Source of the DNA: Spirochaetia bacterium
GTDB taxonomy: Bacteria > Spirochaetota > Spirochaetia > WTKD01
Reading direction: 5' to 3'
NCBI GenBank assembly: GCA_965243525.1
Contig: OZ251568.1
Span: 466,119 to 530,118, forward strand
Length of the DNA stretch: 64,000 nt
Shown here: piece by piece, positions 2,865-41,021 of the stretch
Numbering within the stretch: the stretch's first letter is position 1
Layout: every line of letters starts with the position of its first letter
The notes under the pieces: generated by a model
Databases searched by the model: none
What the model was told of the DNA's origin: nothing
The model's input: only the letters and a program-made list of their open reading frames with translations
Made by a program: the position numbers and the translations under genes

Positions 2865-3657
2865 ATTCATAGACCAGTGTTTCAATTGAAACACATGAAC
2901 CTGATTCACTATCAATCGCTGCAACAACACCATGGATCGTTGCAGTATTCTCACTGACCGTAAAGGGTAAGGGAATATTGGTAGTCATATTTTTCACACT
3001 CGTGTTTGCATTAAATCCAATAACACTTTCGCGGGGAATGCAGGCTCCTATGTCGGTGCAATATCCCGTCCCTTTTTGCTGGATGCGAGCATCGCGAGTC
3101 TGTGTGTGCGTATGGGTGCCAAAAACAAGGCTTGCCTTGCCATCGAAATACTGCGCAAAGGTCTGTTTCTCAGCCACATCCTCGGCGTGAAAATCAACAA
3201 TAACAATTGAACTATTGTCCCCTTGCTTTTTTATAGCTGCCTGCACCGCCTTAAAGGGGCAATCGATTGCATCCATGTGCTTTCTTCCCTGTGCGTTTAT
3301 GATCAATATATTTTTTTCGTTCACCTGCATAGAGCACCATCCCTTTCCTGGACATACCGATGGATAATTGATCGGTCGCAGGACTCGATCTTCCCTATTC
3401 AGAAGTTCATAAGCTTCGTCTTGTCGCCACACATGGTTGCCTGTCGTGATAACATCGACACCCACGTGGTGTAGTTCTTGAATAATCGAATAGGTAATCC
3501 CAAACCCCTCGCACGCATTCTCTGCGTTAGCAAGAATTAGGTTTGGACGATATTTTGAGCGGAGTGTTGCAAGAGAAGTAGTCACTGCTCGCATCCCTGG
3601 ATGGCCAATAATGTCACCAAGAACAAGAACAGTGAATAATTTAGCGGGCATATTCAA
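2854..3657 (-). CDS. ymdB: YmdB-family metallophosphoesterase (2',3'-cyclic-nucleotide phosphodiesterase, TIGR00282-like).
   Basis: LVLGDIIGHPG...LILANAENA..G.GIT...GVDVITTGNHVW...FHAE..AEKQ...GTHTHTQTRDARI are the characteristic YmdB motifs. The gene lies immediately downstream of rny, as in Bacillus. Confidence 0.75.
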   Translation of the reverse strand: MNMPAKLFTVLVLGDIIGHPGMRAVTTSLATLRSKYRPNLILANAENACEGFGITYSIIQELHHVGVDVITTGNHVWRQDEAYELLNREDRVLRPINYPSVCPGKGWCSMQVNEKNILIINAQGRKHMDAIDCPFKAVQAAIKKQGDNSSIVIVDFHAEDVAEKQTFAQYFDGKASLVFGTHTHTQTRDARIQQKGTGYCTDIGACIPRESVIGFNANTSVKNMTTNIPLPFTVSENTATIHGVVAAIDSESGSCVSIETLVYESIL

Positions 3658-5179
3658 TAATACGCGTTTCTCGAATCAACGTAATGCGAATTCTTCCTGA
3701 ATAGCTCAGCTCTTTTTCAATCCTCTTAGTGATATCGCGCGCTATCGTTCTCGTATCAACATCAGAAAGTGCCTCATGGTCAATGATCACCCGAAGTTCT
3801 CTTCCTGCTTGTATCGCATAGGCTTGTTTCACCCCTTCAAATTCCAAAGCAATTGATTCAAGTGCACGTAGTCGTTTGATGTATGCTTCCAGCGATTCTT
3901 TGCGAGCACCCGGGCGAGAAGCAGACAGCGTGTCTGCGATTTGTACAATGGCCGCTTCAATACAGATATATGGTACATCTCCATGGTGTGCCGCGATACA
4001 ATTCACCACCTTTTCAGATTCTTTCATCCGCTTTGCTAGTTCCACACCCAGTTCGACATGGCTTGCATCTGCATCTGAAAACAATGCTTTTCCAACATCG
4101 TGCAGCAGTCCACCGCGTTTTGCAATCACTACATCAGCGTGGAGTTCTGCAGCAAGCATTCCTGCGATATGCGCAACTTCAAGCGAATGGGTGAGCATGT
4201 TCTGCCCATAGCTCGTTCTAAAATGAAGCCTTCCAATTCCAGAAATACCTTCTTTGTTCATATTTTGAATTGAAAGGTCAAAGAGTGCTTTTTCTCCGAG
4301 TTCAAAAATATAATTTTGAATATCGACTTTTTGCTTTTCTACAATCTCTTCAATGCGCGTAGGATGAATTCTCCCGTCATTGATGAGGTATTCTAATGAT
4401 CGTCGTGCAACTTCACGTCGCACTGGATCGAAACAAGAAAGCGAAACAAATTCTGATCCGGCATCATCGATTATGATATCCACCCCAGTGAGGGTTTCAA
4501 GAGCACGAATATTTCGCCCCTCACGCCCGATGATCCGTCCCTTCATCTCTTGGTTCGGCAATTGCACCGAAACAGTCGTGTTTTCAACACTTACTTCAGA
4601 AGCAATTCGCTGCATCGATCCGACCAGCAACCGTTGTGCCAAACGCTGTGCATCCTGTGCTGCATCCTGCTCAACCTTGTTGATCAGCGATTGCGCATCT
4701 CGTTGTGCCTCTGTTTCAAGCGATTGAATAAGCATTGATTTTGCTTCTTCACTCGTGAGATCAGCAAGTTTTTCAACTTTCTTCCTCCACGATTCAATAT
4801 CCTGCTCTAGTTTTTTAGCGCCTTGATGTATTTTCCTCTCGCGAGAATCAAGTGCTGATTGTCTTCGTTGAAGTGACTGCGTTTGTGCCTCGCAAGAATC
4901 CTCACGATTTGAAAGACGTTTTTCTTGCCTTTTTAAATCGGAACGCATCTCACGAAATTCTTTTTCCTGCTCTAGACGCTCTTTTTGAAGAGCCTCTCGC
5001 GTCTTAAGAATTATTTCTTTTTTTTGTGCCTCAACTTCTTTAATTGCATCAAGCTTTAACCGTTCAGCTTTTTGTTCTTCAGATGTCAATTGAAATTTCG
5101 CATATAATAAGCGAAACAACCATCCAGCTACAATTCCCAAGAGAGGAAGTGCAATATAGACAATAACAATTATGTCCAT
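3641..5179 (-). CDS. rny: Ribonuclease Y.
   Basis: N-terminal TM helix, a long coiled coil (KAERLKLDAIKEVEAQKKEI...), KH domain (GREGRNIRALETLTGVDIIIDD) and HD domain (HSLEVAHIAGMLAAEL...LLHDVGKA). 512 aa. Confidence 0.9.
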   Translation of the reverse strand: MDIIVIVYIALPLLGIVAGWLFRLLYAKFQLTSEEQKAERLKLDAIKEVEAQKKEIILKTREALQKERLEQEKEFREMRSDLKRQEKRLSNREDSCEAQTQSLQRRQSALDSRERKIHQGAKKLEQDIESWRKKVEKLADLTSEEAKSMLIQSLETEAQRDAQSLINKVEQDAAQDAQRLAQRLLVGSMQRIASEVSVENTTVSVQLPNQEMKGRIIGREGRNIRALETLTGVDIIIDDAGSEFVSLSCFDPVRREVARRSLEYLINDGRIHPTRIEEIVEKQKVDIQNYIFELGEKALFDLSIQNMNKEGISGIGRLHFRTSYGQNMLTHSLEVAHIAGMLAAELHADVVIAKRGGLLHDVGKALFSDADASHVELGVELAKRMKESEKVVNCIAAHHGDVPYICIEAAIVQIADTLSASRPGARKESLEAYIKRLRALESIALEFEGVKQAYAIQAGRELRVIIDHEALSDVDTRTIARDITKRIEKELSYSGRIRITLIRETRIIEYAR

Positions 5180-5299
5180 TGTATTCCTCCACTACATATT
5201 TATCTGGACCCCTGCCAGACTGCCCATTATACCTAGCGACAGATATCCTTGTCAAATTGATTGCACAGATAGAATCATCCTTCTATAGTTGTAGCATAC

Positions 5300-6580
5300 A
5301 TGGCAGCGTATAGTGTCAAGAATATCGCTACGGGGAGAATTTTTGAGGATCGGTTCACCGACAAGGGATTTCTGCTGAGTGATCCAAAGTCTGCAGATGA
5401 TAGCCTGCTCCAAACGGTATATCCAAAGGATGCACGGATTGACACTTCAAAAAATACGTTTGAACGCTATGCAGGATTTATTCCCACCAATCGCCCCATT
5501 CCCCCCGGATCGCGATCAATTACCTACCATGCAACAACATTGGGTGAACATCTTGGATTAGAACAATTATACATCACCGTCAGTGGCTATGTGCCTCGAT
5601 TGGGGACTACCTACATGTCAGGAAGTTTTAAAGAATGTGAGGCCCTATCCGTCTTTGCACGCATGCCTCAGAATGCTCATGGGAAGACCCTTGTGATTGC
5701 TTCTGCTGGAAATACTGCACGCGCCTTCGCTCATATCGCTGAACTATGCGAACAACCAGTGCTTCTTGTTGTTGCAGAACAAAATGCATCAGCACTCTGG
5801 TGTCGCCATCCCGATCCTCGGTTTGTTCGAGTCTTGCATGTTGCTCATGGAGATTATTACGATGCGATTCACGCGGCAAATATCGTATGCAGCTTTGACG
5901 GTTTTATCCCAGAAGGTGGGGCAAAAAACATCGCACGGCGCGATGGCATGGGGACGACCATGCATGAGGCCATCTCCGTGATGGAAGCAATCCCCCAACA
6001 TTATTTTCAGGCAGTTGGAAGTGGTACCGGCGCAATAGCTGCCTGTGAGGCCGTGGAACGGAGAATTGAACGAGAATATCCGAATGCTCCGCTGTGCACC
6101 CTACACCTTTCACAAAATGCTCCCTTCACGTTGCTGGTTGACTCGTGGAACACCCGGACAAGATCCTTGGCAGAACTTTCTGACGATGATGGAAGAGCCC
6201 AAAGTGCAGTGATCCACGCGCCAGTCCTTGCAAATCGCAACCCAGTCTATGGCATTTCCGGTGGCGTTTTCGACGTTTTGCATAAGACAAATGGACATAT
6301 GTATGCGGTGACAAATGAGGAAACGAAACAGTCGCAGGCCGAATTCACCCATTGTGAAGGCTATGATATCGATCCTGCCGCCGCAGTAGCCTATGCAAGT
6401 CTTAAACAGGCAATTGCATTGGGGCGCATCCCCACTACCGATCTGTGCATGCTGAACATCACCGGGGCAGGATATGCAGGAATTTTTCAATCCTTCAACC
6501 CTCAACCACTTTCACCCAACTGGACAATCGATGTAGGACAGATGACTCATGACACCCTTGCATCCTTACTGCTAGAATAA
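5300..6580 (+). CDS. PLP-dependent threonine-synthase-fold enzyme, cysteate-synthase-like.
   Basis: A candidate PLP-lysine motif (MSGSFKECEA) is followed by TLVIASAGNTARAFA, the fold-type II PLP signature of the threonine synthase/cysteate synthase family. 426 aa. Confidence 0.55.
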   Translation: MAAYSVKNIATGRIFEDRFTDKGFLLSDPKSADDSLLQTVYPKDARIDTSKNTFERYAGFIPTNRPIPPGSRSITYHATTLGEHLGLEQLYITVSGYVPRLGTTYMSGSFKECEALSVFARMPQNAHGKTLVIASAGNTARAFAHIAELCEQPVLLVVAEQNASALWCRHPDPRFVRVLHVAHGDYYDAIHAANIVCSFDGFIPEGGAKNIARRDGMGTTMHEAISVMEAIPQHYFQAVGSGTGAIAACEAVERRIEREYPNAPLCTLHLSQNAPFTLLVDSWNTRTRSLAELSDDDGRAQSAVIHAPVLANRNPVYGISGGVFDVLHKTNGHMYAVTNEETKQSQAEFTHCEGYDIDPAAAVAYASLKQAIALGRIPTTDLCMLNITGAGYAGIFQSFNPQPLSPNWTIDVGQMTHDTLASLLLE

Positions 6581-9701: not shown

Positions 9702-10243
9702 TGAGCCATTTGTGCCGCAAAATAATATTCACGAATCCACGAAAAATTCTGATGCTGGCGTGCAACAAGATATCCTACTCCCAATCCTCCTATTGTTCCG
9801 GTGACAACAAAAGGAAATAGTAAAAATCGCCCTCCCTCACCGTAAATCAACAGAATTGCCAGCAACATTTGAGTGATATTGCTTGCCAGACTTCCAAGAA
9901 GGCTCATTCCGATATACGAAATTTTGTCACGTACAACTGCCTTCCGCACCGAGATCATAATCAACAGGCTTGCAATATTTCCGCCAACAGAAAACAAAAA
10001 CACATAGGATAGCAAGGTTCCATGTATAATTGCTTGTCCAAAAACTTTCAGGAACAGAAGCATAAAGAGATCTCGTTTTTTCATGAATGTGATGACCAAG
10101 AGAATTGGGATGTTGGCGATGCCGAGTCGAAAAAATGGATAGGGCTTTGGGATGAGGTATTCTATACCAGCAAGAAAGAGCGCTGCCGCCCCGAGTATTG
10201 CCAAGAGTTTTTGTTCATTGCTCAGAACACTAGCTGTTTGCAT
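9698..10243 (-). CDS. Gx-transporter / heptaprenyl-diphosphate-synthase-component-I-like membrane protein (pfam07456-like).
   Basis: 181 aa, about 5 TM helices, with the pattern LAILGAAALFLAGIEYLIP...GIANIPILLV...SLLGSLASNITQMLLAILLIYGEG, reminiscent of the Hpre_diP_synt_I / Gx transporter family. Confidence 0.4.
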   Translation of the reverse strand: MQTASVLSNEQKLLAILGAAALFLAGIEYLIPKPYPFFRLGIANIPILLVITFMKKRDLFMLLFLKVFGQAIIHGTLLSYVFLFSVGGNIASLLIMISVRKAVVRDKISYIGMSLLGSLASNITQMLLAILLIYGEGGRFLLFPFVVTGTIGGLGVGYLVARQHQNFSWIREYYFAAQMAH

Positions 10244-11414
10244 ATGCTAGCGGTATCGTGATGGTAATGGTTGTTCCTTTGTCGACTTCACTTGAAATAG
10301 CAATCTTTCCCCTATGTGCGATGATCACCTTCTGCACGCTAACCATCCCCAACCCATGGCCTCCATGGAACTTTGTAAAAAACGGATCGAAAACCTTCTT
10401 TATGTCTTCTTCTTCCATACCTACCCCAAAATCCTCAACCACGATATTCCAGACATTGTCGTCAATAGTGCTAGATACGTGGATTTCCTTCCCCTCTGCT
10501 GATGCCTTTATTGCATTATCGATGACATTGAAGAGCATTCGTTCAACACGCATAAGATCAATAAAGGCAACTGCCTCGCCATCCGTTTTGTAGCGCAAGG
10601 TGATTTTCTGTTCATCGCATTGCATGCGCCATCGCTCAACAAGATTCATGAACAAGGAATTGATTGATACTGAAGAAACTTCCAATGTTTCATTTCCAGA
10701 AACAAGATCAAGAAGATCTTCAATAAATGACTCCAGGCGCCTGCATTGTTCTTTCAACCGATCTGAAATAGTCAGCACAAATCGCTCATCACCAGCGCGA
10801 TTCCGGAGCAAATGCTCAAGCAACTGCAGGCTTGACACCGAACTACGGAGATCATGCACGACCAAAGAAGACAGTTTTCCCAATTGAGTAAAACACTCTG
10901 TTCGCAGCATTGTCTCTTGTTGTTCTTTGAGCTTGTTGTGCGCATTCTTCAACGCGGTGTTTTGAAGCTGCAAATTTTGGGTGAGCTCGCTGGTATTTCG
11001 TACGACGATCTTTGTAAGTGAACGCAGAAAAACGCCTGCAACTTGGCTATTTTCGTTGAGAATTTTTCGGATGTTCAAGCCGTCAATAACAAAAACATCA
11101 ATTTCCATAGTGGAAACAATCGTAGCACTTCGCGGAATTTGTTCAATAACACCTATTTCACCGAGAATGGAACCAGCTTCATAGGATCCCAGATAGATCG
11201 CATCAGGTGTTTCATAACTTTTCCAGATCGATACTTTTCCACTAAAAATAACATAGAGCTCATTTTCAATTGATCCTTCCTTACAAACAATATCATTTTT
11301 TTGATATGTCCTAAGAGAACCAATAGCTGCAATGCGCTCTATGTCTTCGGCAGGAAGGCTTTTAAATAAATCAGTTTCCTGAAGTTTTGTAACAATTGAC
11401 GCGTGATCATCCAT
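10230..11414 (-). CDS. Cytoplasmic sensor histidine kinase with an N-terminal cyclic-nucleotide-binding (CAP-family) domain.
   Basis: cNMP-binding beta-barrel pattern (LFKSLPAEDIERIAAIG...GSILGEIGVIEQIPRSATIVS), H-box VVHDLRSSV, N-box/G1 VEDFGVGM, G2 GGHGLGM. No transmembrane segments and no adjacent response regulator. Confidence 0.75.
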   Translation of the reverse strand: MDDHASIVTKLQETDLFKSLPAEDIERIAAIGSLRTYQKNDIVCKEGSIENELYVIFSGKVSIWKSYETPDAIYLGSYEAGSILGEIGVIEQIPRSATIVSTMEIDVFVIDGLNIRKILNENSQVAGVFLRSLTKIVVRNTSELTQNLQLQNTALKNAHNKLKEQQETMLRTECFTQLGKLSSLVVHDLRSSVSSLQLLEHLLRNRAGDERFVLTISDRLKEQCRRLESFIEDLLDLVSGNETLEVSSVSINSLFMNLVERWRMQCDEQKITLRYKTDGEAVAFIDLMRVERMLFNVIDNAIKASAEGKEIHVSSTIDDNVWNIVVEDFGVGMEEEDIKKVFDPFFTKFHGGHGLGMVSVQKVIIAHRGKIAISSEVDKGTTITITIPLAYANS

Positions 11415-11445
11415 AGTGACTACGTATCATATATAGTACTGATTT

Positions 11446-12150
11446 CTACCAATTGTCAATCATGTCATCAGGATCACGCTGCAACACATCTACATTGGTC
11501 ACGACCCGCAAATCATCAAAATAGATGTAGTAACGCCCATAGGTTTCGAGCAATGAAGATTCGATTTGTAACCCTATGATCTCAAGGCCAGCATTAAAAT
11601 CATCGCCGACTCCTAGCGTAGTGTATCCTTGAATATTTGGAGGAACCGCTGCGGTGAGCTGTTTCCATCCAAGAAATTGCAGTTTTCCAAAACTCAGTAT
11701 ACTGATCTCTCCGAATTGATTTCGTACGAACAGTTTTAACTCATACGGTGTGTTTCTTCCTGCAACCCAGATTGAAAAGGAATGTGCAATTCCTGGCACA
11801 GGAATCGGTCGTGCAGGTAGTATCGCTAATGTTGAATAGGTGCGTCGAAAAAAGTCAGTTCGAACACCCAAGACAAAATCGTCCACCGCCCCCTGTGGGG
11901 CAAGAGCAGTCTCAAGAACCTGAGCATCCTTTGCATCTGGAGAGCCACGTAGTGATCGGTGCTGGATAACGCCATCGTCGATGGAAACCTCAGTTGTCCA
12001 AAATCCAGCATCTTCAAACTTATCAAGTGAAATTTCTTGAAGATTGGGATCAAATGTACCCTGGTCTATTAAAGCAGGATCGATGTCAAGCTGTCCAAAT
12101 GCAGCCAATGCACCAAAAAGTATCAATATAGTTGTCGTTATTACTCTCAT
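11446..12150 (-). CDS. Secreted protein, paralogue of 12160-12903. Candidate FlaA-family (flagellar filament outer-layer/sheath) protein.
   Basis: Signal peptide MRVITTTILILFGALAAFGQ. Shared paralogue motifs are FSIWVAGRNTPYELKLFV...LGWKQLTAAVPPNIQ...YYIYFDDLRVV. The pattern ([IV]S.WV.G.N...L..V ... GW[RK]QL ... Y[FI]YFDDL) matches my recollection of FlaA (pfam04620), not verified. Confidence 0.45.
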   Translation of the reverse strand: MRVITTTILILFGALAAFGQLDIDPALIDQGTFDPNLQEISLDKFEDAGFWTTEVSIDDGVIQHRSLRGSPDAKDAQVLETALAPQGAVDDFVLGVRTDFFRRTYSTLAILPARPIPVPGIAHSFSIWVAGRNTPYELKLFVRNQFGEISILSFGKLQFLGWKQLTAAVPPNIQGYTTLGVGDDFNAGLEIIGLQIESSLLETYGRYYIYFDDLRVVTNVDVLQRDPDDMIDNW

Positions 12151-12159
12151 AAATGCTCC

Positions 12160-12903
12160 CTAATTTGTGTCCTCTGCACCAGTGGATTGATCACTTGCCT
12201 CTTCCCATCGATTCTGTCGAATTTCCGGAACAGTGAGTTCTCCACCATCAACAACGCGTGTATTTGTTCGCGAAAGTGCTTGCAAATCATCAAAATACAC
12301 AAAAAATCCATTCACTGGTTCTCGTGGTTCGGTCCACAACACAATTTTGTCTAAGTAAAGCCGAGCAAAATTAAACTCATATGGATCAACCCGCGGAATG
12401 CTCGTTGGAATCGTTGCAGTTAACTGTCTCCATCCATGATAATTCATTCGGCCCATGGGTACTTGATGAACCATTCCACGATAATCACGTACATGGATCT
12501 CCAATGTAAAATCATAATTTGATCCCCATACCCACATAGAAACACCAATTGTATCTCCAGGCAGGTCAATTGGGCGCTTTTCATAACTACCATCAGAAAG
12601 TCTTTCTATAGGAAGAATTTCTAGATAGTTATATCCTCTCTGTTCAAAAGCAGCTTCTACACCAAGTACACGAAGATCTGCATTTTCAGTATTGTACCCA
12701 TATAATGCGGTTGGCCATGCATTGATGTATGAAACGCGGGGATACTCATCGGCAATCCGCCTGCTCCCGGTGACAACCCATTCGGTTGCAGGGTCAAAAT
12801 TATCAAATGTATCGAGTAACTTCGATGTATAACGTAATACATCTTCAGCCCCTAGGCTTCCCAATGAAAGTATGAGTATGAATGCTATAATAAAACGGCT
12901 CAT
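12160..12903 (-). CDS. Secreted protein, paralogue of 11446-12150. Candidate FlaA-family sheath protein.
   Basis: Signal peptide MSRFIIAFILILSLGSLGA. Motifs VSMWVWGSNYDFTLEIHV...HGWRQLTATIPTSIP...FFVYFDDLQAL align with the neighbouring paralogue. Confidence 0.45.
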   Translation of the reverse strand: MSRFIIAFILILSLGSLGAEDVLRYTSKLLDTFDNFDPATEWVVTGSRRIADEYPRVSYINAWPTALYGYNTENADLRVLGVEAAFEQRGYNYLEILPIERLSDGSYEKRPIDLPGDTIGVSMWVWGSNYDFTLEIHVRDYRGMVHQVPMGRMNYHGWRQLTATIPTSIPRVDPYEFNFARLYLDKIVLWTEPREPVNGFFVYFDDLQALSRTNTRVVDGGELTVPEIRQNRWEEASDQSTGAEDTN

Positions 12904-12948
12904 ATTTGCTCCTCTGTCGCGAGTAAACTTTGACTACAAAGTCTCACC

Positions 12949-13914
12949 CTAGTATCGGTGAAATACTGCAGGAACATAAACCCTGTCTTTTGTTTTATCA
13001 CGAGTTACGCTATAAGAAATAATATCTTCTAATCGAAATCCAATACTCATAGTCGCTCCCAAATACTCCGCACCGTCTACAAAGAAACTCTCAATGCAAA
13101 TTTCTCCATTGAGTCCAGAAATACTTTCATACACAGTGCCTATATGCGAACCAAGGAAAAAAAGAAAATAGTCCGCATCTCTGTGTTTCCCTATATCTTC
13201 GACAACTCGTGTGATGATCGTCTCCTCATCAAAATAGACAAGTTCTCGTACAGCAACAGCAGCATCGTTGAGCAATCCGTCTGACAGAACTGCATATTCC
13301 TCTGTGGTGAGTGTCCCCCTTGCGTGGAATATCACAACCTCTTTTTCTTCAGAAGAATCTGTTTGTTCGTCTTCGCGAAGAATGTAATCCACCATTTCTT
13401 GAAGCGCATTGCGCCTGTCCAGGATGAGTGTTTGTCGTAGCAATTTGTTTTCTTGATCCACGGGCTCAGATGACAAGGTTGCAGACTCATCGGGCATCGT
13501 TGCATCAGAATCATCTTGTGGAAATGCTCCCAATGGACTATCTGATTCACGAGCAAGACGAATGTGCACGTATTGCGCTTGATTGCGCGGTTGGAATCGT
13601 TTTAATTCGGCGTCAATCTGCAATTGATATGAAGGAAAAAACAATACTTCTTTGCTATGATGGAGGGCCATTTTTTGGAAAGGATGGAGCAGATTGGATG
13701 CGGAGCGCAGCAACAACCCGCGGAGGGCGAACTGGGGAGCATCTGGATCATCACCTTGCAGATCAGCGAGAATTCTTTTTGTCTCTTGTTTGATATTTCC
13801 TGGATAACTAGCCGCGAGATAAGTATCATAAACGATAATCGTGTTTCCACAAGCGGTAATTCCAAGAAGGATGATACCGAGCAATAATAACTGGTTTTTC
13901 ATTCTAAACATCAC
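12949..13914 (-). CDS. Lipoprotein of unknown function.
   Basis: Lipobox LLGITAC-G after an N-terminal hydrophobic segment. 321 aa, no recognisable catalytic motif. Confidence 0.45.
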   Translation of the reverse strand: MMFRMKNQLLLLGIILLGITACGNTIIVYDTYLAASYPGNIKQETKRILADLQGDDPDAPQFALRGLLLRSASNLLHPFQKMALHHSKEVLFFPSYQLQIDAELKRFQPRNQAQYVHIRLARESDSPLGAFPQDDSDATMPDESATLSSEPVDQENKLLRQTLILDRRNALQEMVDYILREDEQTDSSEEKEVVIFHARGTLTTEEYAVLSDGLLNDAAVAVRELVYFDEETIITRVVEDIGKHRDADYFLFFLGSHIGTVYESISGLNGEICIESFFVDGAEYLGATMSIGFRLEDIISYSVTRDKTKDRVYVPAVFHRY

Positions 13915-13921
13915 TCAACAG

Positions 13922-14728
13922 TCATGAAAATAGGGTGGTGATCGTAGTAAACGTCCCCAATTTGTGAAATCCATAGATACATCCAACAAACACAACCGTA
14001 AAAAGTCCAAACAATATATATTGATATTGATAAAACAGCATGGTAATAAACACCACAAATACCCCATAGGTAATAAGAAGCAGGACTTGATGTATGAATT
14101 TCTTATATCTAAACATCTGAAGGGTTGTGCGGATCGTTTGTATCACCGGTGACTCAGATCTAGCAGCTGTTGATTCCCGAAAAAAACTCCAGCGACTTGG
14201 CACGCCACTAGATAAAGATCGGTTATTTTTTGATTTAATTGCAATGCATTCGAGGATAATTATAGTAATGAACGGTATTGCGATCGAAAAAAACGGTGCT
14301 ATCGCACCAACATACACAGCTCGCTCAAGGTTTTGCATGAATAACAATCGCCCAATATTGTATATGACTAAAAACAAAAACTGCAAATAGAGAAATTGTT
14401 TTATTTTTGCAGGATCTGTTTGAGAACGAAAAGGCGTCAAAACTCGCATGACCCAAGCAGTTGCAAGATAGGTGGTGAGCAGCGGTGCGGCTATTTCACG
14501 TACGAACACCACTATAACGTGAGTTATTCCCATGGTGTTCAGGGGAAGGTAGAGCGCAATAAAAAAAGGAACAAGAAGAGTCAGCGGCAGAACATGACAG
14601 ATATAACATAACGTGCGAATCGAAAACGTCTTCCATGTTTTTTCTTGATCAATTACCACGAGATAACTCAGCACAAATGGGCCAACTGTTAACAAAAGCA
14701 CATGCATAAAACTATCCTGCAGTATCAT
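13922..14728 (-). CDS. Polytopic integral membrane protein of unknown function.
   Basis: 268 aa with 7 or more hydrophobic helices. It is the first gene of the co-directional minus-strand array 14728->7898. Confidence 0.45.
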   Translation of the reverse strand: MILQDSFMHVLLLTVGPFVLSYLVVIDQEKTWKTFSIRTLCYICHVLPLTLLVPFFIALYLPLNTMGITHVIVVFVREIAAPLLTTYLATAWVMRVLTPFRSQTDPAKIKQFLYLQFLFLVIYNIGRLLFMQNLERAVYVGAIAPFFSIAIPFITIIILECIAIKSKNNRSLSSGVPSRWSFFRESTAARSESPVIQTIRTTLQMFRYKKFIHQVLLLITYGVFVVFITMLFYQYQYILFGLFTVVFVGCIYGFHKLGTFTTITTLFS

Positions 14729-14753
14729 AGCAAGTTGTGATAGTTATTCCTAG

Positions 14754-14782
14754 TTGCATGTTAGCTTGTTTCACCATATACT
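14754..14782 (+). promoter_or_regulatory. Sigma-70-type promoter for infC-rpmI-rplT: TTGCAT, 17-nt spacer, TATACT.
   Basis: -35 TTGCAT at 14754-14759 and -10 TATACT at 14777-14782, spacer exactly 17 nt, about 30 nt upstream of the infC start. Confidence 0.4.
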
Positions 14783-14812
14783 TCATATGTATGAAATATA
14801 CGGGAACAATTT

Positions 14813-15367
14813 GTGGCAGATACAAAATTACGTATTAACAATCGTATCCGCGTAGCGGAAGTTCGTCTCATTGATGAAAACGGAAATCAGATGGGAATAG
14901 TAAGTACTGCAGCTGCCTTGAAACGGGCTGAAGAAAGCTCTTTGGATCTGGTGGAAGTCGCCCCTCGGGCTAAACCTCCTGTTTGCAAGATCCTTGATTA
15001 TGGGAAGTATCAATTCGATACGAACAAGCGACTGCGTGGGATGAAAAAAAGCACGAAGACTTCAAAGCTCAAAGAAGTGCGTATGCAGCCTAAAATCAGC
15101 ATCCATGATTTGACGTTTAAGACAAAGGCAGTGCAGACATTTTTATCTGAAGGAAGTAAGGTAAAGGTCAGTATTCGCTTTCGTGGTAGAGAATTTGCCC
15201 ATACTGAATTAGGAAAGGAAGTATTGGAAAGAACACTTGAAATTCTTACAATTCCTGTTAAAATTGAGAAAGCACCGGCGATGGAAGGACGTATGATGAC
15301 CATGCTTCTTGCTCCTGGGGTTAAGAAAGTGAAAAGAGAACAAGAAGATGCCAAAGATAAAGACTAG
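14813..15367 (+). CDS. infC: Translation initiation factor IF-3. The apparent start is GTG.
   Basis: [29 protein letters not shown]...[23 protein letters not shown]...[14 protein letters not shown] has strong IF-3 identity. A non-AUG start is typical for infC autoregulation. Confidence 0.9.
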
Positions 15368-17344: not shown

Positions 17345-18202
17345 ATGATCATCAATCATAATCTTAGTGCAATGTTTGCACAAAGGTATAGCGGCATCAA
17401 TGATGCAAATTTAACAAGGAACATTGAGCGGTTGTCTTCTGGACTACGTATTACCCGCGCTGCCGACGATGCGTCAGGGCTTGCTGTCTCTGAAAAGATG
17501 CGTGCACAGATACGGGGTCTGTATGCCGCATCAAGAAATGCGTCAGATGGCATTGCGTTTATACAAACAGCTGAAGGGCATCTGCAGGGAACCACTGAGG
17601 CCTTGCAACGAATTCGCGAGCTTTCTATTCAAGCAGCAAATGGCATCTATTCAGCTGAGGATCGCATGCAAATACAAGTTGAGATTTCTCAACTGGTGGA
17701 TGAAGTCGACAGAATTGCTTCTCAAGCACAGTACAATGGAATGAATATTCTTACTGGACGATTTGCCCGTGATGTAGGAACCAATGTGGTTACTGCCAGT
17801 ATGTGGTTTCATATTGGGGCAAATATGGATCAACGGGAACAAGCCTATATTGGAACGATGTCTTCTGCTGCGTTAGGGCTTCGATTTCCAAATAATGATT
17901 TTGTTTCACTTTCTACCCCTGATGGCGCCAACAGAACCATCGGAGTAGTTGATCGAGCCTTAATGATTGTGAATAAGCAACGAGCTGATCTCGGTGCCTA
18001 TCAGAATAGGCTTGAATTAACGGTGCGAGGAACAGATCTCAGCGCTGAGAACCTGCAGGCAGCTGAATCACGTATTCGAGATCTTGATTTTGCTGCAGGA
18101 GTGAGGGAATTCACGAAGAATCAAATTTTGATGCAGTCAAGCACTGCTATGTTGGCTCAGGCAAACCTGAAGAGTCAATCGGTACTCGGTTTGCTCCAAT
18201 AA
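17345..18202 (+). CDS. flaB: Flagellar filament core flagellin FlaB (copy 1).
   Basis: [59 protein letters not shown] is the canonical spirochete FlaB N-terminus. The C-terminus [27 protein letters not shown] is also conserved. RBS AAGGAGGA. Confidence 0.9.
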
Positions 18203-18256
18203 CGGAGCTGGTGAATACCACGGATCTTTGACATCAACCTCCTTGATGGCCATTGG

Positions 18257-18284
18257 AGGGCAGTTTTAGTTCTGAAATTGCCCT
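18257..18284 (+). terminator. Hairpin between flaB1 and flaB2. Weak terminator/attenuator candidate.
   Basis: aGGGCAgtttt-agttctg-aaatTGCCCt has a stem of about 10 bp with 1 mismatch, followed by ctgtcatggtttt. The U-tract is poor. Confidence 0.3.
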
Positions 18285-18342
18285 CTGTCATGGTTTTAAG
18301 GCGCGTACTTTCTACCATGGTAGTCATTGTGAAGGAGGTCAT

Positions 18343-19182
18343 ATGATAATTAATCATAATGCGAGTGCAGCATTTGCTAGCAGAGAATTACGTTTTCACG
18401 GAGCAAGGAATGCACAAAGTATTGAACGCTTAAGTTCAGGGTTACGTATTAACAGCGCCGGAGACGACGCGTCTGGACTTGCGCTTGCTGAAAAGCTTCA
18501 AACGCAAATTCGAGGGTTACGGCAGGCAGATAGAAATATCCAAAGTGCTATTTCCTTCATTCAGACAACAGAATCGTATCTACAAGGAACTCAAGATTCA
18601 TTACAACGTATTCGTGAGCTTGCTGTTCAATCAGCAAACGGAATCTATTCGTTAGGTGACCGTGCTCAAATTCAAGTTGAGGTATCAATGCTTGTTGATG
18701 AAATCAGTAGGATAGCATCTCAGGCAGAGTTCAACCGATTGAACATGCTTACCGGAAGGTTTGCTCCTGGTGCCCTAGAAATCATGCAGTTTCATATTGG
18801 GGCAAACGAAAACCAAAATGTTCAAGTGCATATCGGTAATATGTCAGCTGAAGGGCTTGGCTTGCGCGGTGAGGCAAACAATACCTCTATTTCAACTGTG
18901 GCGACTGCCAATGAAACAATTGGAATCGTGGATAATGCTCTTGATACTGTCGTCAAGCAACGGGCTGATCTCGGTGCATATCAAAACAGATTTGAGATTG
19001 CACAAAAGAGTATTGCTGTTGCGGCAGAAAACATGCAGGCTGCTGAATCGTATATTCGCGATGTTGATATGGTTGAAGAACTCTCTGAATATGTAAAAAA
19101 TCAGATGCTCACCCAAACAACAACGGCGATGCTCGCACAAGCAAATACACAACCTGAAATTGTGCTGCAATTGTTGGGTTAG
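18343..19182 (+). CDS. flaB: Flagellar filament core flagellin FlaB (copy 2).
   Basis: [59 protein letters not shown]. The start was chosen at the ATG preceded by GAAGGAGG rather than the upstream ORF-track ATG at 18253. Confidence 0.9.
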
Positions 19183-19269: not shown

Positions 19270-19608
19270 ATGATTGATATACACAGTATATTTACAGACT
19301 TATTACACACCTCCCCCAGTTGGAATCGCCGTGAGACCCCCATGCCTCCTCGCGCGCTTCCTGATCCAGGTACTACGTTTACCAAACCCGCTCAGTTACA
19401 AACAGCGATCAAGGATTTGCAAAGCCTTGTGAATGTCTATGACAAAAACCTACGTTTTCATCTGAGCGAAGGCCTTGACCGAGTTATTGTTAAAGTAGTA
19501 AACAATACTACCGAGGAGATAATTAAGGAGATTCCGTCTGAGCTCGTGCAGCAGATGCTTTTGCGTGTGCGAGAAGCATTAGGCGCAATCATTGATTATC
19601 GCGTGTAA
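19270..19608 (+). CDS. flaG: Flagellar protein FlaG.
   Basis: 112 aa, at the position immediately upstream of fliD. The C-terminal pattern ...IKEIPSELVQQMLLRVREALGAIID is FlaG-like. Confidence 0.55.
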   Translation: MIDIHSIFTDLLHTSPSWNRRETPMPPRALPDPGTTFTKPAQLQTAIKDLQSLVNVYDKNLRFHLSEGLDRVIVKVVNNTTEEIIKEIPSELVQQMLLRVREALGAIIDYRV

Positions 19609-19617
19609 CGGAGCACT

Positions 19618-21369
19618 ATGGCCGACATTTTTATTCCTTCTGTTTCTTCAGGAGGAGCAACGGATTCAAACAAACAGATTGAACGTATCATGGAAGTGGA
19701 GCGAATTCCGCTGCAGCGTATGGAAGATGACCGGACACAGCTGCGTACTGAACAGGATACCTGGTCTTCAGTAAAACGAAATCTTTCTTCCTTGCTTGAG
19801 AGCTCTCGCTCAATGTATCAGTTTAACAATCCCTTTTCTGCACGAATCATAGAATCGAGCAATGAGCGCGTTGTTGTTGGAAGAAGTCTCAACAACAGCC
19901 TCCTTGGAACCTATGAAGTCACCGTAGAACAAAAGGCAACTGCTGATCGGTTTGCATCGGATCCCATCGATTCAGATTACGCGGTGTCATCAGGCAATTA
20001 TGGATTTTCTGTTGGTTCAGCGGATATCGAAATCGCATTTGATGGGGGAAGCTTGGAAGAACTTGCTCAGACAATTACCATTAATGGGCAAGGAAAGCTG
20101 ACCGCATCATTGATTCAAGTTACCGATTCACAGTCGGTATTCTTGATTGCATCTCGCGAAACAGGAAAGACAAACACATTGGCATTCCATGGTAGTACAA
20201 AAAAACTCGCCACAGAGATCGGCATTCTGGGCGCAGCACAAACAGAGCCACTTCTTTTTTCTGAATCTTTTGTAACGGCAATTGATGAGCCAGAGTTTCA
20301 GTTAGGACCAGGAGAACAGGCATCCTTTTTTGTGAAAAATAACGTCCACGCTCTTCATATTAAATCCGACGATGCTCTCACAGCAACCATTTCTGGATCG
20401 CAAGAAAATTCTCGTACAGAGCAAGGTAGCACAATCGCCATTGATCGTGATGCCATCGATATGTCAAAAGTGGTTATTGAAAACACTTCGGATGCACCAA
20501 CCACTGTCCAGATCAGCGCATTTTCTCCGTCTCGCCCTACCCCACAGAATCCGATTACACAAGCACAAAACGCAATTGTAACGATTGAAGGAATTACCGT
20601 TGAACGACCAACCAATGATTTTGATGAAATCCTTCCAGGGGTAAGCTTGGAGGTTCGTTCACCAAGCGATACTCCAGTTGAGCTCATTGTAAGCCCTGAT
20701 ATCGAATTGGCAAAACAGGAAGTTATCCGATTGGTTGGGAACTACAATGTGACATTACAACAGGTCAACATCCTCACTCGTGATGATCCAACGGTTGTTG
20801 ATGATATCGCTTTTGCAACTGAAGAAGAACGTAACGCTGCATTGGAAGAACTAGGCACACTTCGGGGGGACACCCTGCTCACGCGGTTGCGATCGCGACT
20901 AGTGAGTGCAGTATCAAACATGATCCGTGTAGGGGGTTCGGTCTCTTTTTTGAGTGAAATTGGAATTTCAACAAATCAACACTCCGTGGGAACGCTGAAC
21001 TCAACTTCTTTGAATGGCTATCTTGAAATCAATGAATCATCGCTTGATGCGGCATTGTCCAATTCTTTTGAACATGTTTCAAAATTATTTGGAAACGACA
21101 GTGATGGAAATCAAATTATTGATAATGGATTTGCGTTTAGTGTTTCAGAAGCAATTGAGCAATACACGCAGAGTGGCGGCATTATCGATGTGCGAACACA
21201 GCGAATCTCAAATCAAATACGCGAAGCTGATACCCAAATAGAACGATATTCTGATAAACTAGAAGACAAGGAAGCTGAGTTACGACGTCAATTTGCGGTG
21301 ATGGAGCAGCAAGTGCAATCATTACAGGACAACACCCGAGCATTAGATGGGTTTCTCAGGCGAGAATGA
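19618..21369 (+). CDS. fliD: Flagellar filament capping protein FliD (hook-associated protein 2).
   Basis: N-terminal SSGGATDSNKQIERIMEVERIPLQRMEDDRTQLRTEQDTWSSVKRNLSSLLESSRSMYQ and C-terminal ...RISNQIREADTQIERYSDKLEDKEAELRRQFAVMEQQVQSLQ are the FliD N- and C-terminal coiled coils. 583 aa. Confidence 0.85.
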   Translation: MADIFIPSVSSGGATDSNKQIERIMEVERIPLQRMEDDRTQLRTEQDTWSSVKRNLSSLLESSRSMYQFNNPFSARIIESSNERVVVGRSLNNSLLGTYEVTVEQKATADRFASDPIDSDYAVSSGNYGFSVGSADIEIAFDGGSLEELAQTITINGQGKLTASLIQVTDSQSVFLIASRETGKTNTLAFHGSTKKLATEIGILGAAQTEPLLFSESFVTAIDEPEFQLGPGEQASFFVKNNVHALHIKSDDALTATISGSQENSRTEQGSTIAIDRDAIDMSKVVIENTSDAPTTVQISAFSPSRPTPQNPITQAQNAIVTIEGITVERPTNDFDEILPGVSLEVRSPSDTPVELIVSPDIELAKQEVIRLVGNYNVTLQQVNILTRDDPTVVDDIAFATEEERNAALEELGTLRGDTLLTRLRSRLVSAVSNMIRVGGSVSFLSEIGISTNQHSVGTLNSTSLNGYLEINESSLDAALSNSFEHVSKLFGNDSDGNQIIDNGFAFSVSEAIEQYTQSGGIIDVRTQRISNQIREADTQIERYSDKLEDKEAELRRQFAVMEQQVQSLQDNTRALDGFLRRE

Positions 21370-21404: not shown

Positions 21405-22229
21405 ATGACATTAATAATTGATGAAACACCGGTTACGTTTACACTTGAAAATGAAAAAACCATAGATGAAGTTGTTCAGGCCATTAATGGACACGTTAAA
21501 CAATATTATTCCTATGTAAAATCAATAGAGATCGATGGAGAACATTATAGCACCGACACACAGGCGGCCCCTGCTCTTGATGCAATCGACACCTTGCAGG
21601 TATACACTGCACATATACACGAACTCTATCTTGCAAAGCTGGAACTCCTCCACGAGGTGCTCCACGAATGCATTCAGAACAATGATGGAAATACCTTGAC
21701 CCGACTCGGCATCGACGTAGAAGAAATTCAATCGATTGCCATAACGGTATTACCTCAAGAAGATACTGATGCAATTTGTGCAGAACTCACCAAGAGCGGA
21801 AATTCGCAGATTCAAGATTCTCTGTTGAAAAAAATAGAATATCGCATCCAATGCCTCCGTGATCCTTTGACATCGTGCAAAAAAACATTAAAAATCCTCA
21901 CGCAAGTGTTTGAGCAGATGCAAGATAACCCCACCCAATTGCAGACAGGTGATACCCAACCGGTTATAGCCCACTTGATTACGTTTAGCGAGTTGCTGCA
22001 AGATATTATCCGGTCCTACCTTCTGTGCACTCATCGATTTCTTTCGCTTCCTGCAATTGATTTCGCTCCGTTGCAAAATCAACTCAATGAATTAAAACAG
22101 ACCCTAACCGAAGAAACACTTGATACTGTTATGCTTGCAGATCTCATTGAATATGAATTAATTCCTATAGGAAGGGAATGGATTGAAAAAACTACCAAGA
22201 ATCTCACTGCAATAGATTCTGCTTCATGA
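21405..22229 (+). CDS. Hypothetical protein occupying the post-fliD position where fliS is usually found. It is not FliS-like.
   Basis: 274 aa, acidic, no TM segment and no recognisable motifs. It ends with a 4-nt overlap into tsaE. Confidence 0.35.
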   Translation: MTLIIDETPVTFTLENEKTIDEVVQAINGHVKQYYSYVKSIEIDGEHYSTDTQAAPALDAIDTLQVYTAHIHELYLAKLELLHEVLHECIQNNDGNTLTRLGIDVEEIQSIAITVLPQEDTDAICAELTKSGNSQIQDSLLKKIEYRIQCLRDPLTSCKKTLKILTQVFEQMQDNPTQLQTGDTQPVIAHLITFSELLQDIIRSYLLCTHRFLSLPAIDFAPLQNQLNELKQTLTEETLDTVMLADLIEYELIPIGREWIEKTTKNLTAIDSAS

Positions 22230-23455: not shown

Positions 23456-23713
23456 CTATTCTTTATCTTGCGACATTGGAGTGAAGTTAATATCATCTAA
23501 GACAGTTTTCTGCTTTTCAGCAGATGTATCCGCCTGTGCTGCTGCAATATTTTGGGATAAGACCTCTTTAAAGACCTCTTCACGATAGATATCAACTGAT
23601 CTTGGGGCTTCGATACCAATGCTTACTTGTTCACCTCGAACCTCAAGAACAATAACTCTAATATCATTCCCAATACGTATCGATTGATCTTTTCTCCTGC
23701 TAAGTACGAGCAT
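23456..23713 (-). CDS. csrA: Carbon storage regulator CsrA.
   Basis: MLVLSRRKDQSIRIGNDIRVIVLEVRGEQVSIGIEAPRSVDIYREEVF. Confidence 0.9.
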   Translation of the reverse strand: MLVLSRRKDQSIRIGNDIRVIVLEVRGEQVSIGIEAPRSVDIYREEVFKEVLSQNIAAAQADTSAEKQKTVLDDINFTPMSQDKE

Positions 23714-24152
23714 GGGAGACCTGCGTCTCTACTCTGTCTTTTAGGAAATAATGCTTGGTGTTCCAGTTTCCCAACGCAATCGATTGGCGCCCAAGCTTTG
23801 TTTCTTTGTTAATCAATATTGGCCCAAGCAGATTGCAACTAATCTCTTCCTTGCTTTCTGGAATCGTGATTATTGAAAACACGAGCAATTTTTCAACATC
23901 GGTGCATTGAATATCTTCAAGATCAGTGTCGTTAACCTCAAGCTCATACGTAGGGTATATGAGATAGGGATTGATAACGAAAAAAGAAATATTAATATCA
24001 TCCAGGCTCTGTAAGATATAGAAATGGGGGACATCAGAATCGATTAATGAAAAACTTCGGAGATGTTCGAATCCTATAATACCAAGGGGAAACTCTATGC
24101 ACTGGTCTTGTGCAACTTCAATAGTACCGTATTGTTTTGTTTGAATTGTCAT
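23700..24152 (-). CDS. fliW: Flagellar assembly factor FliW.
   Basis: 150 aa: MTIQTKQYGTIEVAQDQCIEFPLGIIGFEHLRSF.LID...PHFYILQS is the FliW N-terminal pattern. It lies immediately upstream of csrA and overlaps it. Confidence 0.8.
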   Translation of the reverse strand: MTIQTKQYGTIEVAQDQCIEFPLGIIGFEHLRSFSLIDSDVPHFYILQSLDDINISFFVINPYLIYPTYELEVNDTDLEDIQCTDVEKLLVFSIITIPESKEEISCNLLGPILINKETKLGRQSIALGNWNTKHYFLKDRVETQVSHART

Positions 24153-24154
24153 TA

Positions 24155-25396
24155 TTACCTCAAATAATCTAAAAGACTTGTTTGTAACACCTTTGCAGAA
24201 ACCGACAAAGCGGCTTCGTGCGAATACTTTAACATGTTCAGTTCTGTGACTGCCTGCGCATAATCAACACCAACTGCTTGTGAATCGAGTTCGTTCATGC
24301 GCAAGGCATCAGTTGATAATTGTTTATACACAAGGTCAAGACGTTCATCTAACGATCCGTGATGCGCAACTGTTTGAACCAGCGTATTTAATGATTCATC
24401 AAGATTCGCAATCACGCGTGTTCCGATATCAGTTGCATTATTGCTCATCAAGGCATCTTGAAACATGACCAAGATGTCAAATATTGATCCCTTTGAATAG
24501 AGCGCATTTGGATGGTGGTTATAGGGAGCTCTTGCTCCAGTAATGAGGCCAATATCTTGTAATACCGCCCCCTCCCCTATATCTTCCATCCATAATTGTT
24601 GTGGGGTGGTTGTTTCGAGGGTGATTCCTCCATCCACCTCATTCAAGTTTGCACGCACCGGTATAGGTGCATTGTTTATTTTTTGAATAATAGCAGGAAG
24701 CGTATCTCCCTGACTCAATTCGATGATTTCACCCTGAATTGAAATGGATGAACTTTGCGTGATAGTATAGTTTTCTGCGTTTGTAGTGGATATTATCTTG
24801 TCGTTTTTTCCCCAAAAAATTTCACTGCCTATGGCATTGCGGGTGACATAGCTGTTCTCTTGGATTTCAATCGCTTGCAATGAGATATTTCCAATATATT
24901 CAACACCAATAATCTGCGATCCCTGTCCTGCAATATTGCTCCCGAACATGCCACGAAATGGCATTTGATCAGTCTTTGTTCCTGAAAAAAGATAGTTTCC
25001 ATCGCCATCCTTTTTGTTTGCCGTATCAATTAATTCTTTTAGGTGTTGATTGATCTGCTCTATTGCAGCTTCACGGTCTTCTTCGGTATAGACGCCATTT
25101 GAAAAACGCACAGCAAGCTCCCGGGTATTCTGCAACAAAGTGATACTGTGTCGAATGTATCCCTCTGCAAGCTGTGTTTGTCCCTTTACTGCTTCGACGT
25201 TTCGTGAAAAACGTTCTATACGTATCTGAATCGATTGATAACGTACCGCATGAGACGCTGCCAACGGCTCATCTCGCAAATTGGTAATCCTATTTTGACT
25301 GGCAATTTGCTTTTCGGCAGTAAGTAATGCACGTTCTCGTTTTCTCATGTAAAACTGTGCATCATCGTTTGCTAAATTTGTGCTAACACGGTCCAT
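24155..25396 (-). CDS. flgL: Flagellar hook-associated protein 3 FlgL.
   Basis: N-terminal MDRVSTNLANDDAQFYMRKRERALLTAEKQIASQNRI (flagellin_N-like) and conserved C-terminal LQTSLLDYLR. 413 aa. Confidence 0.75.
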   Translation of the reverse strand: MDRVSTNLANDDAQFYMRKRERALLTAEKQIASQNRITNLRDEPLAASHAVRYQSIQIRIERFSRNVEAVKGQTQLAEGYIRHSITLLQNTRELAVRFSNGVYTEEDREAAIEQINQHLKELIDTANKKDGDGNYLFSGTKTDQMPFRGMFGSNIAGQGSQIIGVEYIGNISLQAIEIQENSYVTRNAIGSEIFWGKNDKIISTTNAENYTITQSSSISIQGEIIELSQGDTLPAIIQKINNAPIPVRANLNEVDGGITLETTTPQQLWMEDIGEGAVLQDIGLITGARAPYNHHPNALYSKGSIFDILVMFQDALMSNNATDIGTRVIANLDESLNTLVQTVAHHGSLDERLDLVYKQLSTDALRMNELDSQAVGVDYAQAVTELNMLKYSHEAALSVSAKVLQTSLLDYLR

Positions 25397-25399
25397 ATA

Positions 25400-40875: not shown

Positions 40876-40947
40876 TAGCCCGTAGGGGAGTCGAACCCCT
40901 GTTACAGGACTGAGAACCCTGTGTCCTAACCACTAGACGAACGGGCC
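40876..40947 (-). tRNA. tRNA-Glu (anticodon CUC).
   Basis: Cloverleaf by hand-fold: acceptor GGCCCGT/ACGGGCT (G1.U72), D-stem GTCT/GGAC, anticodon stem CAGGG/TCCTG with loop TTCTCAG, T-arm AGGGG-TTCGACT-CCCCT, discriminator A. No encoded CCA. Confidence 0.7.
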
Positions 40948-40950
40948 ATG

Positions 40951-41021
40951 CTTCCCAGGGAGGATTCGAACCCCCACAAACAGAACCAGAACCTGTTGTG
41001 CTACCATTACACCACCGGGAA
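40951..41021 (-). tRNA. tRNA-Gln (anticodon CUG).
   Basis: Acceptor TTCCCGG/CTGGGAA (U1:A72 as in E. coli tRNA-Gln), anticodon stem ACAGG/TCTGT with loop TTCTGGT, T-arm GGGGG-TTCGAAT-CCTCC, discriminator G. It lies 3 nt from tRNA-Glu. Confidence 0.7.

Follow-up and report, generated by a model that had tools for sequence, protein, structure and literature searches.

Two adjacent genes at 11446–12903 of a 64,000-nt stretch of a Spirochaetia genome (contig OZ251568.1; the whole stretch is called the window below) encode short proteins of the FlaA flagellar-sheath family. Both lie on the minus strand, and the upstream and downstream members are referred to as B and A. The preferred reading, to which a probability of about 0.85 is attached, is that B and A are co-transcribed and encode Sec-exported minor sheath subunits on the concave side of the FlaB core, orthologous to TDE1408 and TDE1409 of Treponema denticola, respectively. 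Short FlaA sheath gene pairs of this kind are routine, have been characterised before and can already be annotated, and the two products can be confidently named TDE1408-type and TDE1409-type minor sheath proteins, instead of being called generic 'FlaA' or assigned to a new secreted family. The importance of the pair beyond correct annotation is small, with comparative by-products that are possibly useful for work on spirochete flagella.

An earlier examination of the letters alone (the sequence-only reading) had marked two adjacent open reading frames (ORFs) of 234 and 247 aa at this place, and its coordinates are exact. The stop codon of B is separated from the start codon of A by 9 nt on the same strand, a gap that implies co-transcription of what would be an operon-like pair, possibly with translational coupling of A to B. 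The GC content of the pair (0.42–0.43) is the same as that of its surroundings.

Family membership and orthologous groups

Both proteins score well above the 25-bit gathering score of Pfam PF04620 (FlaA, flagellar filament outer layer protein; profile length 230): A with 89.6 bits (expectation value, E = 3.1e-25, profile positions 28–227) and B with 83.1 bits (E = 3e-23, positions 65–221). AlphaFold2 models of the two proteins have predicted local distance difference test (pLDDT) values of 83 for A (83.2 to one decimal) and 90 for B. In a Foldseek comparison, the A model is closest to 9cyn, a solved FlaA1 sheath protein (E = 1e-15, template modelling scores 0.67/0.72), which is also the top structural match of the B model, and generic carbohydrate-binding module (CBM) beta-sandwiches are far behind for both. 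Each protein is thus predicted to be a single-domain FlaA-type beta-sandwich, like the solved FlaA sheath proteins. The FlaA assignment offered in the sequence-only reading is upheld by these searches, and the alternative it had kept in reserve, a novel duplicated secreted family, is rejected by the PF04620 scores and by the structure matches to FlaA. It is scarcely credible that B and A are secreted beta-sandwich proteins that bind carbohydrate and have nothing to do with the flagellum, their resemblance to FlaA going no further than a shared jelly-roll fold.

Proteins B and A are paralogues, 29% identical over 238 columns (BLASTP, E = 1e-19). The four-motif skeleton that had been described for them is collinear in both, and two of its motifs, [FV]S.WV.G.N....L...V and GW[KR]QLTA..P..I, are literal in A and B alike. 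The remaining two are literal in A, while B needs one relaxed position in each (FEQRGY for F.RR.Y, and FVYFDDL for Y[FI]YFDDL), so that the description stands in its order and in half of its motifs, and has to be loosened for B in the other half. Chance does not account for the shared motifs, given the highly significant homologues that both proteins have in the databases. Among the matches listed, 120 homologues of A (217–275 aa) all carry PF04620, and nearly all of those named by their source are called FlaA. The homologues that bear a taxon name are all from spirochaetes (Spirochaetia, Treponematales or Brevinematales).

Both N-termini consist of a basic residue, a hydrophobic core, and small residues at −3 and −1, and have the look of Sec-dependent, signal peptidase I-type signal peptides, which predicts periplasmic export, unlike FlaB core flagellins. 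Over 11-residue windows (Kyte-Doolittle), hydropathy reaches a maximum of 3.27 at the N-terminus of B, with no later hydrophobic span, and of 2.82 at that of A, with no other hydrophobic span. The signal peptides ascribed earlier to both ORFs are borne out by this hydropathy and by the small residues at the likely cleavage sites (Table 1). Residue Q20 of A, the first after the likely cleavage site, is invariant across 53 homologues, and the solved T. denticola chain 10pl_E begins 25 residues into its 246-aa precursor; in the alignment with B, chain 10pl_D starts about 2 residues ahead of the position that pairs with residue 23.

A PDB sequence search shows FlaA-type chains of three lengths in the solved filament structures: a 349-aa chain, and two short chains (246 and 236 aa, both present in 10PL and 9PIN) that are labelled 'FlaA, putative'. 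The T. denticola chains were compared with the window proteins by sequence only. Protein A matches 10pl_E and 9pin_A0 (246 aa) best, with E ~2e-44 and 155 bits in an alignment that runs to the last residue; its match to the 236-aa chain is about 110 bits weaker (42.5 bits), and the same search returned no match of A to the 349-aa chain. The pattern is reversed for B, which scores 127 bits (E = 8e-36) against the 236-aa chain and 51.6 bits against the 246-aa chain, with the 349-aa chain barely detectable (16 bits, E = 0.047). Profiles of the two types, built from homologues with the window sequences left out, separate the T. denticola proteins in the same way: the A-type profile gives 287.0 bits to TDE1409 and 89.3 bits to TDE1408, and the B-type profile 225.5 bits to TDE1408 and 90.0 bits to TDE1409. 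Neither TDE1408 nor TDE1409 is among the 164 retrieved proteins, where the closest sequences are 58% and 55% identical to them.

By these scores, gene A is assigned as the orthologue of TDE1409 (UniProt Q73MU8) and gene B as that of TDE1408 (Q73MU9). TDE1409 is FlaA2 in both published nomenclatures. TDE1408 is called FlaA1 in one of them (PMC13439194) and FlaA3 in the other, which reserves FlaA1 for the long protein TDE1712 (bioRxiv 10.64898/2026.02.04.703737). The A-type group has a C-terminal signature, RDPDDMxDxW-COOH, that was derived in this analysis and is not a published family definition; A ends in RDPDDMIDNW and TDE1409 in RDQDDMSDNW, and D.DDM.D.W is found at the C-terminus of 51 of the 53 aligned members.

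The major FlaA of Treponema and Brachyspira (TDE1712, 349 aa; PDB 9PIM, 9PIN, 10PL) shares with the pair the Pfam family name and the role of a sheath on a FlaB core. It is about 100 residues longer than the window proteins, with a C-terminal helix that bridges neighbours, and its eight copies per 52-Å repeat enclose the convex side and the greater part of the circumference. That B and A could be long FlaA proteins of this type (~330–350 aa) is ruled out by their lengths of 247 and 234 aa and by the near-absence of sequence similarity.

Conservation of the tandem across spirochaetes

A scan of one genome per species gave 68 loci that encode an A-type protein, with record names from Spirochaetaceae, Spirochaetales, Sediminispirochaeta, Treponemataceae, Treponematales, Rectinemataceae and Brevinematales. 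In every one of them (68/68) a B-type gene, by reciprocal-best assignment, lies immediately upstream on the same strand, which points to an ancient duplication and a conserved gene order. In T. denticola, the neighbouring locus tags TDE1408 and TDE1409 fit the same B-type-then-A-type order. Among the GTDB representative genomes hit, the best match is 72% identical and comes from the Spirochaetaceae metagenome-assembled genome (MAG) SS36427bin_6.

The alignment of A with a subset of its homologues (53 sequences) spans 220–275 aa with a median of 234, and in the B-type alignment (43 sequences) the relatives are 237–289 aa long (median 253), so that members of the two groups normally have about 234 and about 253 residues. 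The pair had been described as an unusual short FlaA pair, a description that does not survive the recurrence of the tandem in all related loci, nor the 236- and 246-aa paralogues of T. denticola itself. Conservation of the pair across these Spirochaetia-like genomes suggests that the concave-side sheath strip of T. denticola is widespread in the group.

As the two are paralogues, one copy might be redundant or in decay and contribute nothing by itself, and in Leptospira the deletion of flaA1 alone has little phenotype (PMC13144727). Such a reading is very improbable here, and already disfavoured: the duplication is ancient and both copies have been kept at each of the 68 loci, both ORFs are intact, and all of the invariant columns of the respective groups are retained (36 in A and 17 in B). 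Moreover, single deletion of either orthologue in T. denticola impairs motility (PMC13439194).

Comparison with characterised flagellar sheaths

Mass spectrometry has identified TDE1408 (236 aa) and TDE1409 (246 aa) in purified T. denticola flagella, and both have been modelled in the sheath by cryo-electron microscopy (PDB 10PL); deletion of either short FlaA gene leaves filaments that are sheathed but unstable, and swim rings of ~7 mm compared with ~20 mm in the wild type (PMC13439194). In an independent preprint of 2026, the 52-Å sheath repeat of that species contains eight long FlaA, two FlaA2, two FlaA3/FlaA1, one FlaL1/FlaAP1 and one FlaL2/FlaAP2, with the short FlaAs forming a strip on the concave (inner-curvature) side in the order FlaA2-FlaA3-FlaA3-FlaA2. 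The central FlaA3 subunits are antiparallel dimers that scarcely touch the core, and FlaA2 contacts four FlaB subunits. One Ca2+ is bound per short FlaA, and where the strip runs, on the inner curvature, the core is axially compacted (bioRxiv 10.64898/2026.02.04.703737).

From T. denticola we infer the filament location, stoichiometry, and curvature and motility role of B and A. After export and removal of their signal peptides in the periplasm, the two proteins would join the FlaB core as minor subunits of the sheath on the concave (inner-curvature) side, the A-type protein next to the core and the B-type protein as antiparallel dimers between two A-type rows. There they may allow for, or impose, the compacted core lattice by which the filament is supercoiled, and they may stabilise the sheath for force transmission.

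Protein A is 42% identical to TDE1409 and similar in length (234 and 246 aa), with a signal peptide, one FlaA beta-sandwich domain, and a gene position downstream of a TDE1408-type gene. Protein B is 34% identical to TDE1408, has a signal peptide and the invariant WVWGS and GW, and is encoded directly upstream of a FlaA2-type gene. Residues E197 and D221 of the TDE1408 self-interface map to E195 and D219 of B, which are invariant in the 43 B-type sequences and are the only two published self-interface residues of this protein (FlaA1) to be invariant across the group. A further interface residue, D227, falls outside the printed alignment with B. The C-terminal tail of B is predicted to be a long helix (residues 226–245); the tail is variable across the group, and in T. 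denticola it anchors neighbouring subunits.

Several observations weigh against this reading. The identities to the characterised proteins, 42% for A and 34% for B, are moderate. Residues E158 and Y160 of TDE1409, which contact FlaB1 (PMC13439194), correspond to I151 and S153 in A, and three of the five mappable self-contact residues of TDE1408 differ in B (H72 to T65, R176 to P174 and K203 to F201). No sigma-70 consensus promoter is present upstream of B at the corresponding place in the window (12904–13000, minus), nor in L001, the related locus closest to the window. In T. denticola the FlaAP/FlaL proteins frame the concave strip; among the two candidates compared, gene C and the 274-aa ORF listed in Table 1, no partner of the FlaAP1/FlaL1, FlaAP2/FlaL2 or Fcp kind was found, as neither matches a PDB chain or scores above a curated Pfam cut-off. 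Finally, no third FlaA-family gene was detected in the 64-kb window by tblastn, and a long major FlaA was thus not found there. Of these points, the mismatch at E158/Y160 bears on a detail of the interface and not on group membership, and the FlaA2 contacts made through these residues have been called markedly weak (PMC13439194).

The last point could indicate that the short pair is the main or sole FlaA-type sheath of this organism; a long FlaA of the TDE1712 type would then be missing, and the pair would cover more of the core than a concave strip. We consider this unlikely, even though the genome is small (1.79 Mb) and gene loss is conceivable. A long FlaA of ~37 kDa is found in Spirochaeta aurantia, and this counts against such an arrangement. 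Leptospira does build its sheath from other proteins and has no long FlaA of the Treponema type (PMC13144727). In T. denticola, however, the long flaA stands by itself as an orphan, well away from the other flagellar genes (PMC9481697), and the window covers less than 4% of the genome; the absence of such a gene from the window is therefore uninformative.

Leptospira FlaA2 and FlaA1 (PDB 10LK, 10LL, 10LM) resemble the window proteins in belonging to the same Pfam family, in being Sec-exported sheath proteins, and in being encoded by a two-gene operon. FlaA2 (~240 aa) aligns with A to the last residue and is needed for coiled filaments (PMC13144727). The matches of the pair to the Leptospira proteins amount to only 62–66 bits for FlaA2 and 44–51 bits for FlaA1. 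Against the NCBIfam models of Leptospira FlaA2 and FlaA1 (NF047846 and NF047845, with cut-offs of 440 and 500), A scores 64.9 and 47.7 bits and B 69.2 and 50.9 bits, and by these values both proteins are classed as homologues, not equivalogs, of the Leptospira proteins. Leptospira FlaA1 is 315 aa long, and the operon order there is flaA2 then flaA1, the reverse of that in the window (PMC13144727). In addition, FcpA and FcpB are the dominant proteins of the Leptospira sheath. The comparison drawn in the sequence-only reading, to a Leptospira flaA1/flaA2 pair of about 240 aa each, was therefore right for FlaA2 and wrong for FlaA1 (~315 aa).

Promoters and neighbouring genes

The positions of the pair, its signals and the surrounding genes are given in Table 1. 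At most of the related loci the B-type gene is preceded, at about 50–60 nt, by TTGACA-N16–18-TATAAT, which is perfect in 51 of the 60 loci with enough upstream sequence and one base off in 5 more. An extended conserved form, TTTGACAAA...GAAATATAAT, is seen among the related loci other than L001 (L002–L068), and the promoter has been kept although the encoded proteins are only ~35–45% identical to those of the window. In the lineage of the window, the pair is probably transcribed either by read-through of an upstream transcript or from a promoter that departs from the consensus. The missing consensus promoter is a small lineage-specific difference that leaves the identity of the genes unchanged. 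The sole perfect TTGACA-N18-TATAAT in the whole window is at 5255 (minus; TTGACAAGGATATCTGTCGCTAGGTATAAT), between the divergent genes 3641–5179 (−) and 5300–6580 (+).

A CCGATAC sequence 50 nt upstream of B (12953–12958) is conserved in L001 and resembles the −10 element of T. denticola flaB2 (PMC9481697). Control of the pair by sigma-28 is unsupported: TAAA-N13–17-CCGATA does not occur anywhere in the window, and at the 58 other loci whose upstream sequence is long enough, CCGATA is never at that position. The hexamer lies within the last codons (R-Y-stop) of gene C, and its conservation in L001 is explained by coding constraint.

Table 1. Genes and signals of the short FlaA pair and its neighbourhood in the window.
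Feature	Position	Strand	Description
Gene D	13922–14728	minus	268-aa multi-pass membrane protein; first of two genes upstream of the pair
Gene C	12949–13914	minus	321-aa lipoprotein-like protein; LLGITAC lipobox-like N-terminus; directly upstream of B
Shine-Dalgarno of B	12909–12914	minus	GAGGAG, 5 nt before ATG; read from sequence; conserved in L001
Gene B	12160–12903	minus	247 aa; ATG start; intact ORF; upstream member of the pair
Signal peptide of B	12847–12903	minus	Residues 1–19, MSRFIIAFILILSLGSLGA; LGA/E; likely cleaved before EDV (site inferred from sequence)
Shine-Dalgarno of A	12156–12160	minus	GGGAG; overlaps TAG stop of B; read from sequence
Gene A	11446–12150	minus	234 aa; ATG start; intact ORF; downstream member of the pair
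Signal peptide of A	12094–12150	minus	Residues 1–19, MRVITTTILILFGALAAFG; AFG/Q; likely cleaved before Q20 (site inferred from sequence)
Histidine kinase	10230–11414	minus	cNMP_binding + HisKA + HATPase_c; begins 31 nt after A
flaB	17345–18202	plus	Core flagellin, 285 aa; Flagellin_N + Flagellin_C; 396 bits to T. denticola 10pl_Ba
Second flaB	18253–19182	plus	Flagellin_N + Flagellin_C domains
flaG	19270–19608	plus	Pfam FlaG
fliD	19618–21369	plus	Filament cap; Pfam FliD_N + FliD_C
274-aa ORF	21405–22229	plus	After fliD; between the filament genes and tsaE/tsaB
csrA-fliW-flgL-flgK	23456–27274	minus	Gene block

The pair is contained in a tight minus-strand string of genes between 14728 and 7898, whose successive gaps are 7, 45, 9, 31, −14, −4 and 49 nt. 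Upstream of B, genes C and D have no Pfam match above the curated cut-off, and C has no PDB match either; among the 68 loci they are common only to L001, at 35% and 25% identity. Downstream of A, a homologue of the cyclic nucleoside monophosphate (cNMP)-binding kinase lies on the same strand in 16 of the 55 loci with enough flank (11 adjacent and 5 about 1.3 kb away), and L001 is without one. A more elaborate reading would have the pair rewired in this lineage, with its consensus promoter lost and the genes drawn into a string behind D and C and before the kinase, so that C might be a new stand-in for FlaAP/FlaL, or the curvature proteins might be co-regulated with a cNMP-sensing kinase; we regard this as decidedly unlikely.

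Two terminator-like hairpins with T-runs (14188–14212 and 14294–14309, minus) are found inside the coding sequence of gene D, and the region 10000–15000 has 10 terminator-like sites compared with 4.3 expected from shuffles. The hairpins in gene D may reflect its many Phe (TTT) codons.

The genes flaB (two copies), flaG, fliD, flgK, flgL, fliW and csrA are all within 15 kb of the pair. The presence of two flaB genes had been pointed out in the sequence-only reading and agrees with the Flagellin_N and Flagellin_C domains of both. The listed TTG start of the second flaB, at 18253, is probably 30 codons early, as the first residue of Flagellin_N is 33 and the ATG at 18343 opens the conserved MIINHN. 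The 274-aa ORF that follows fliD has no convincing Pfam or PDB match, Endotoxin_N being a weak hit below the cut-off.

The csrA-fliW-flgL-flgK block has the gene set of the flgN-flgK-flgL-fliW-csrA cluster of T. denticola (PMC9481697), and by analogy hints at CsrA/FliW control of flagellin translation in this organism. Further along, two adjacent tRNA genes (40876–41021, minus) are the sole Rfam matches in the window at the gathering threshold.

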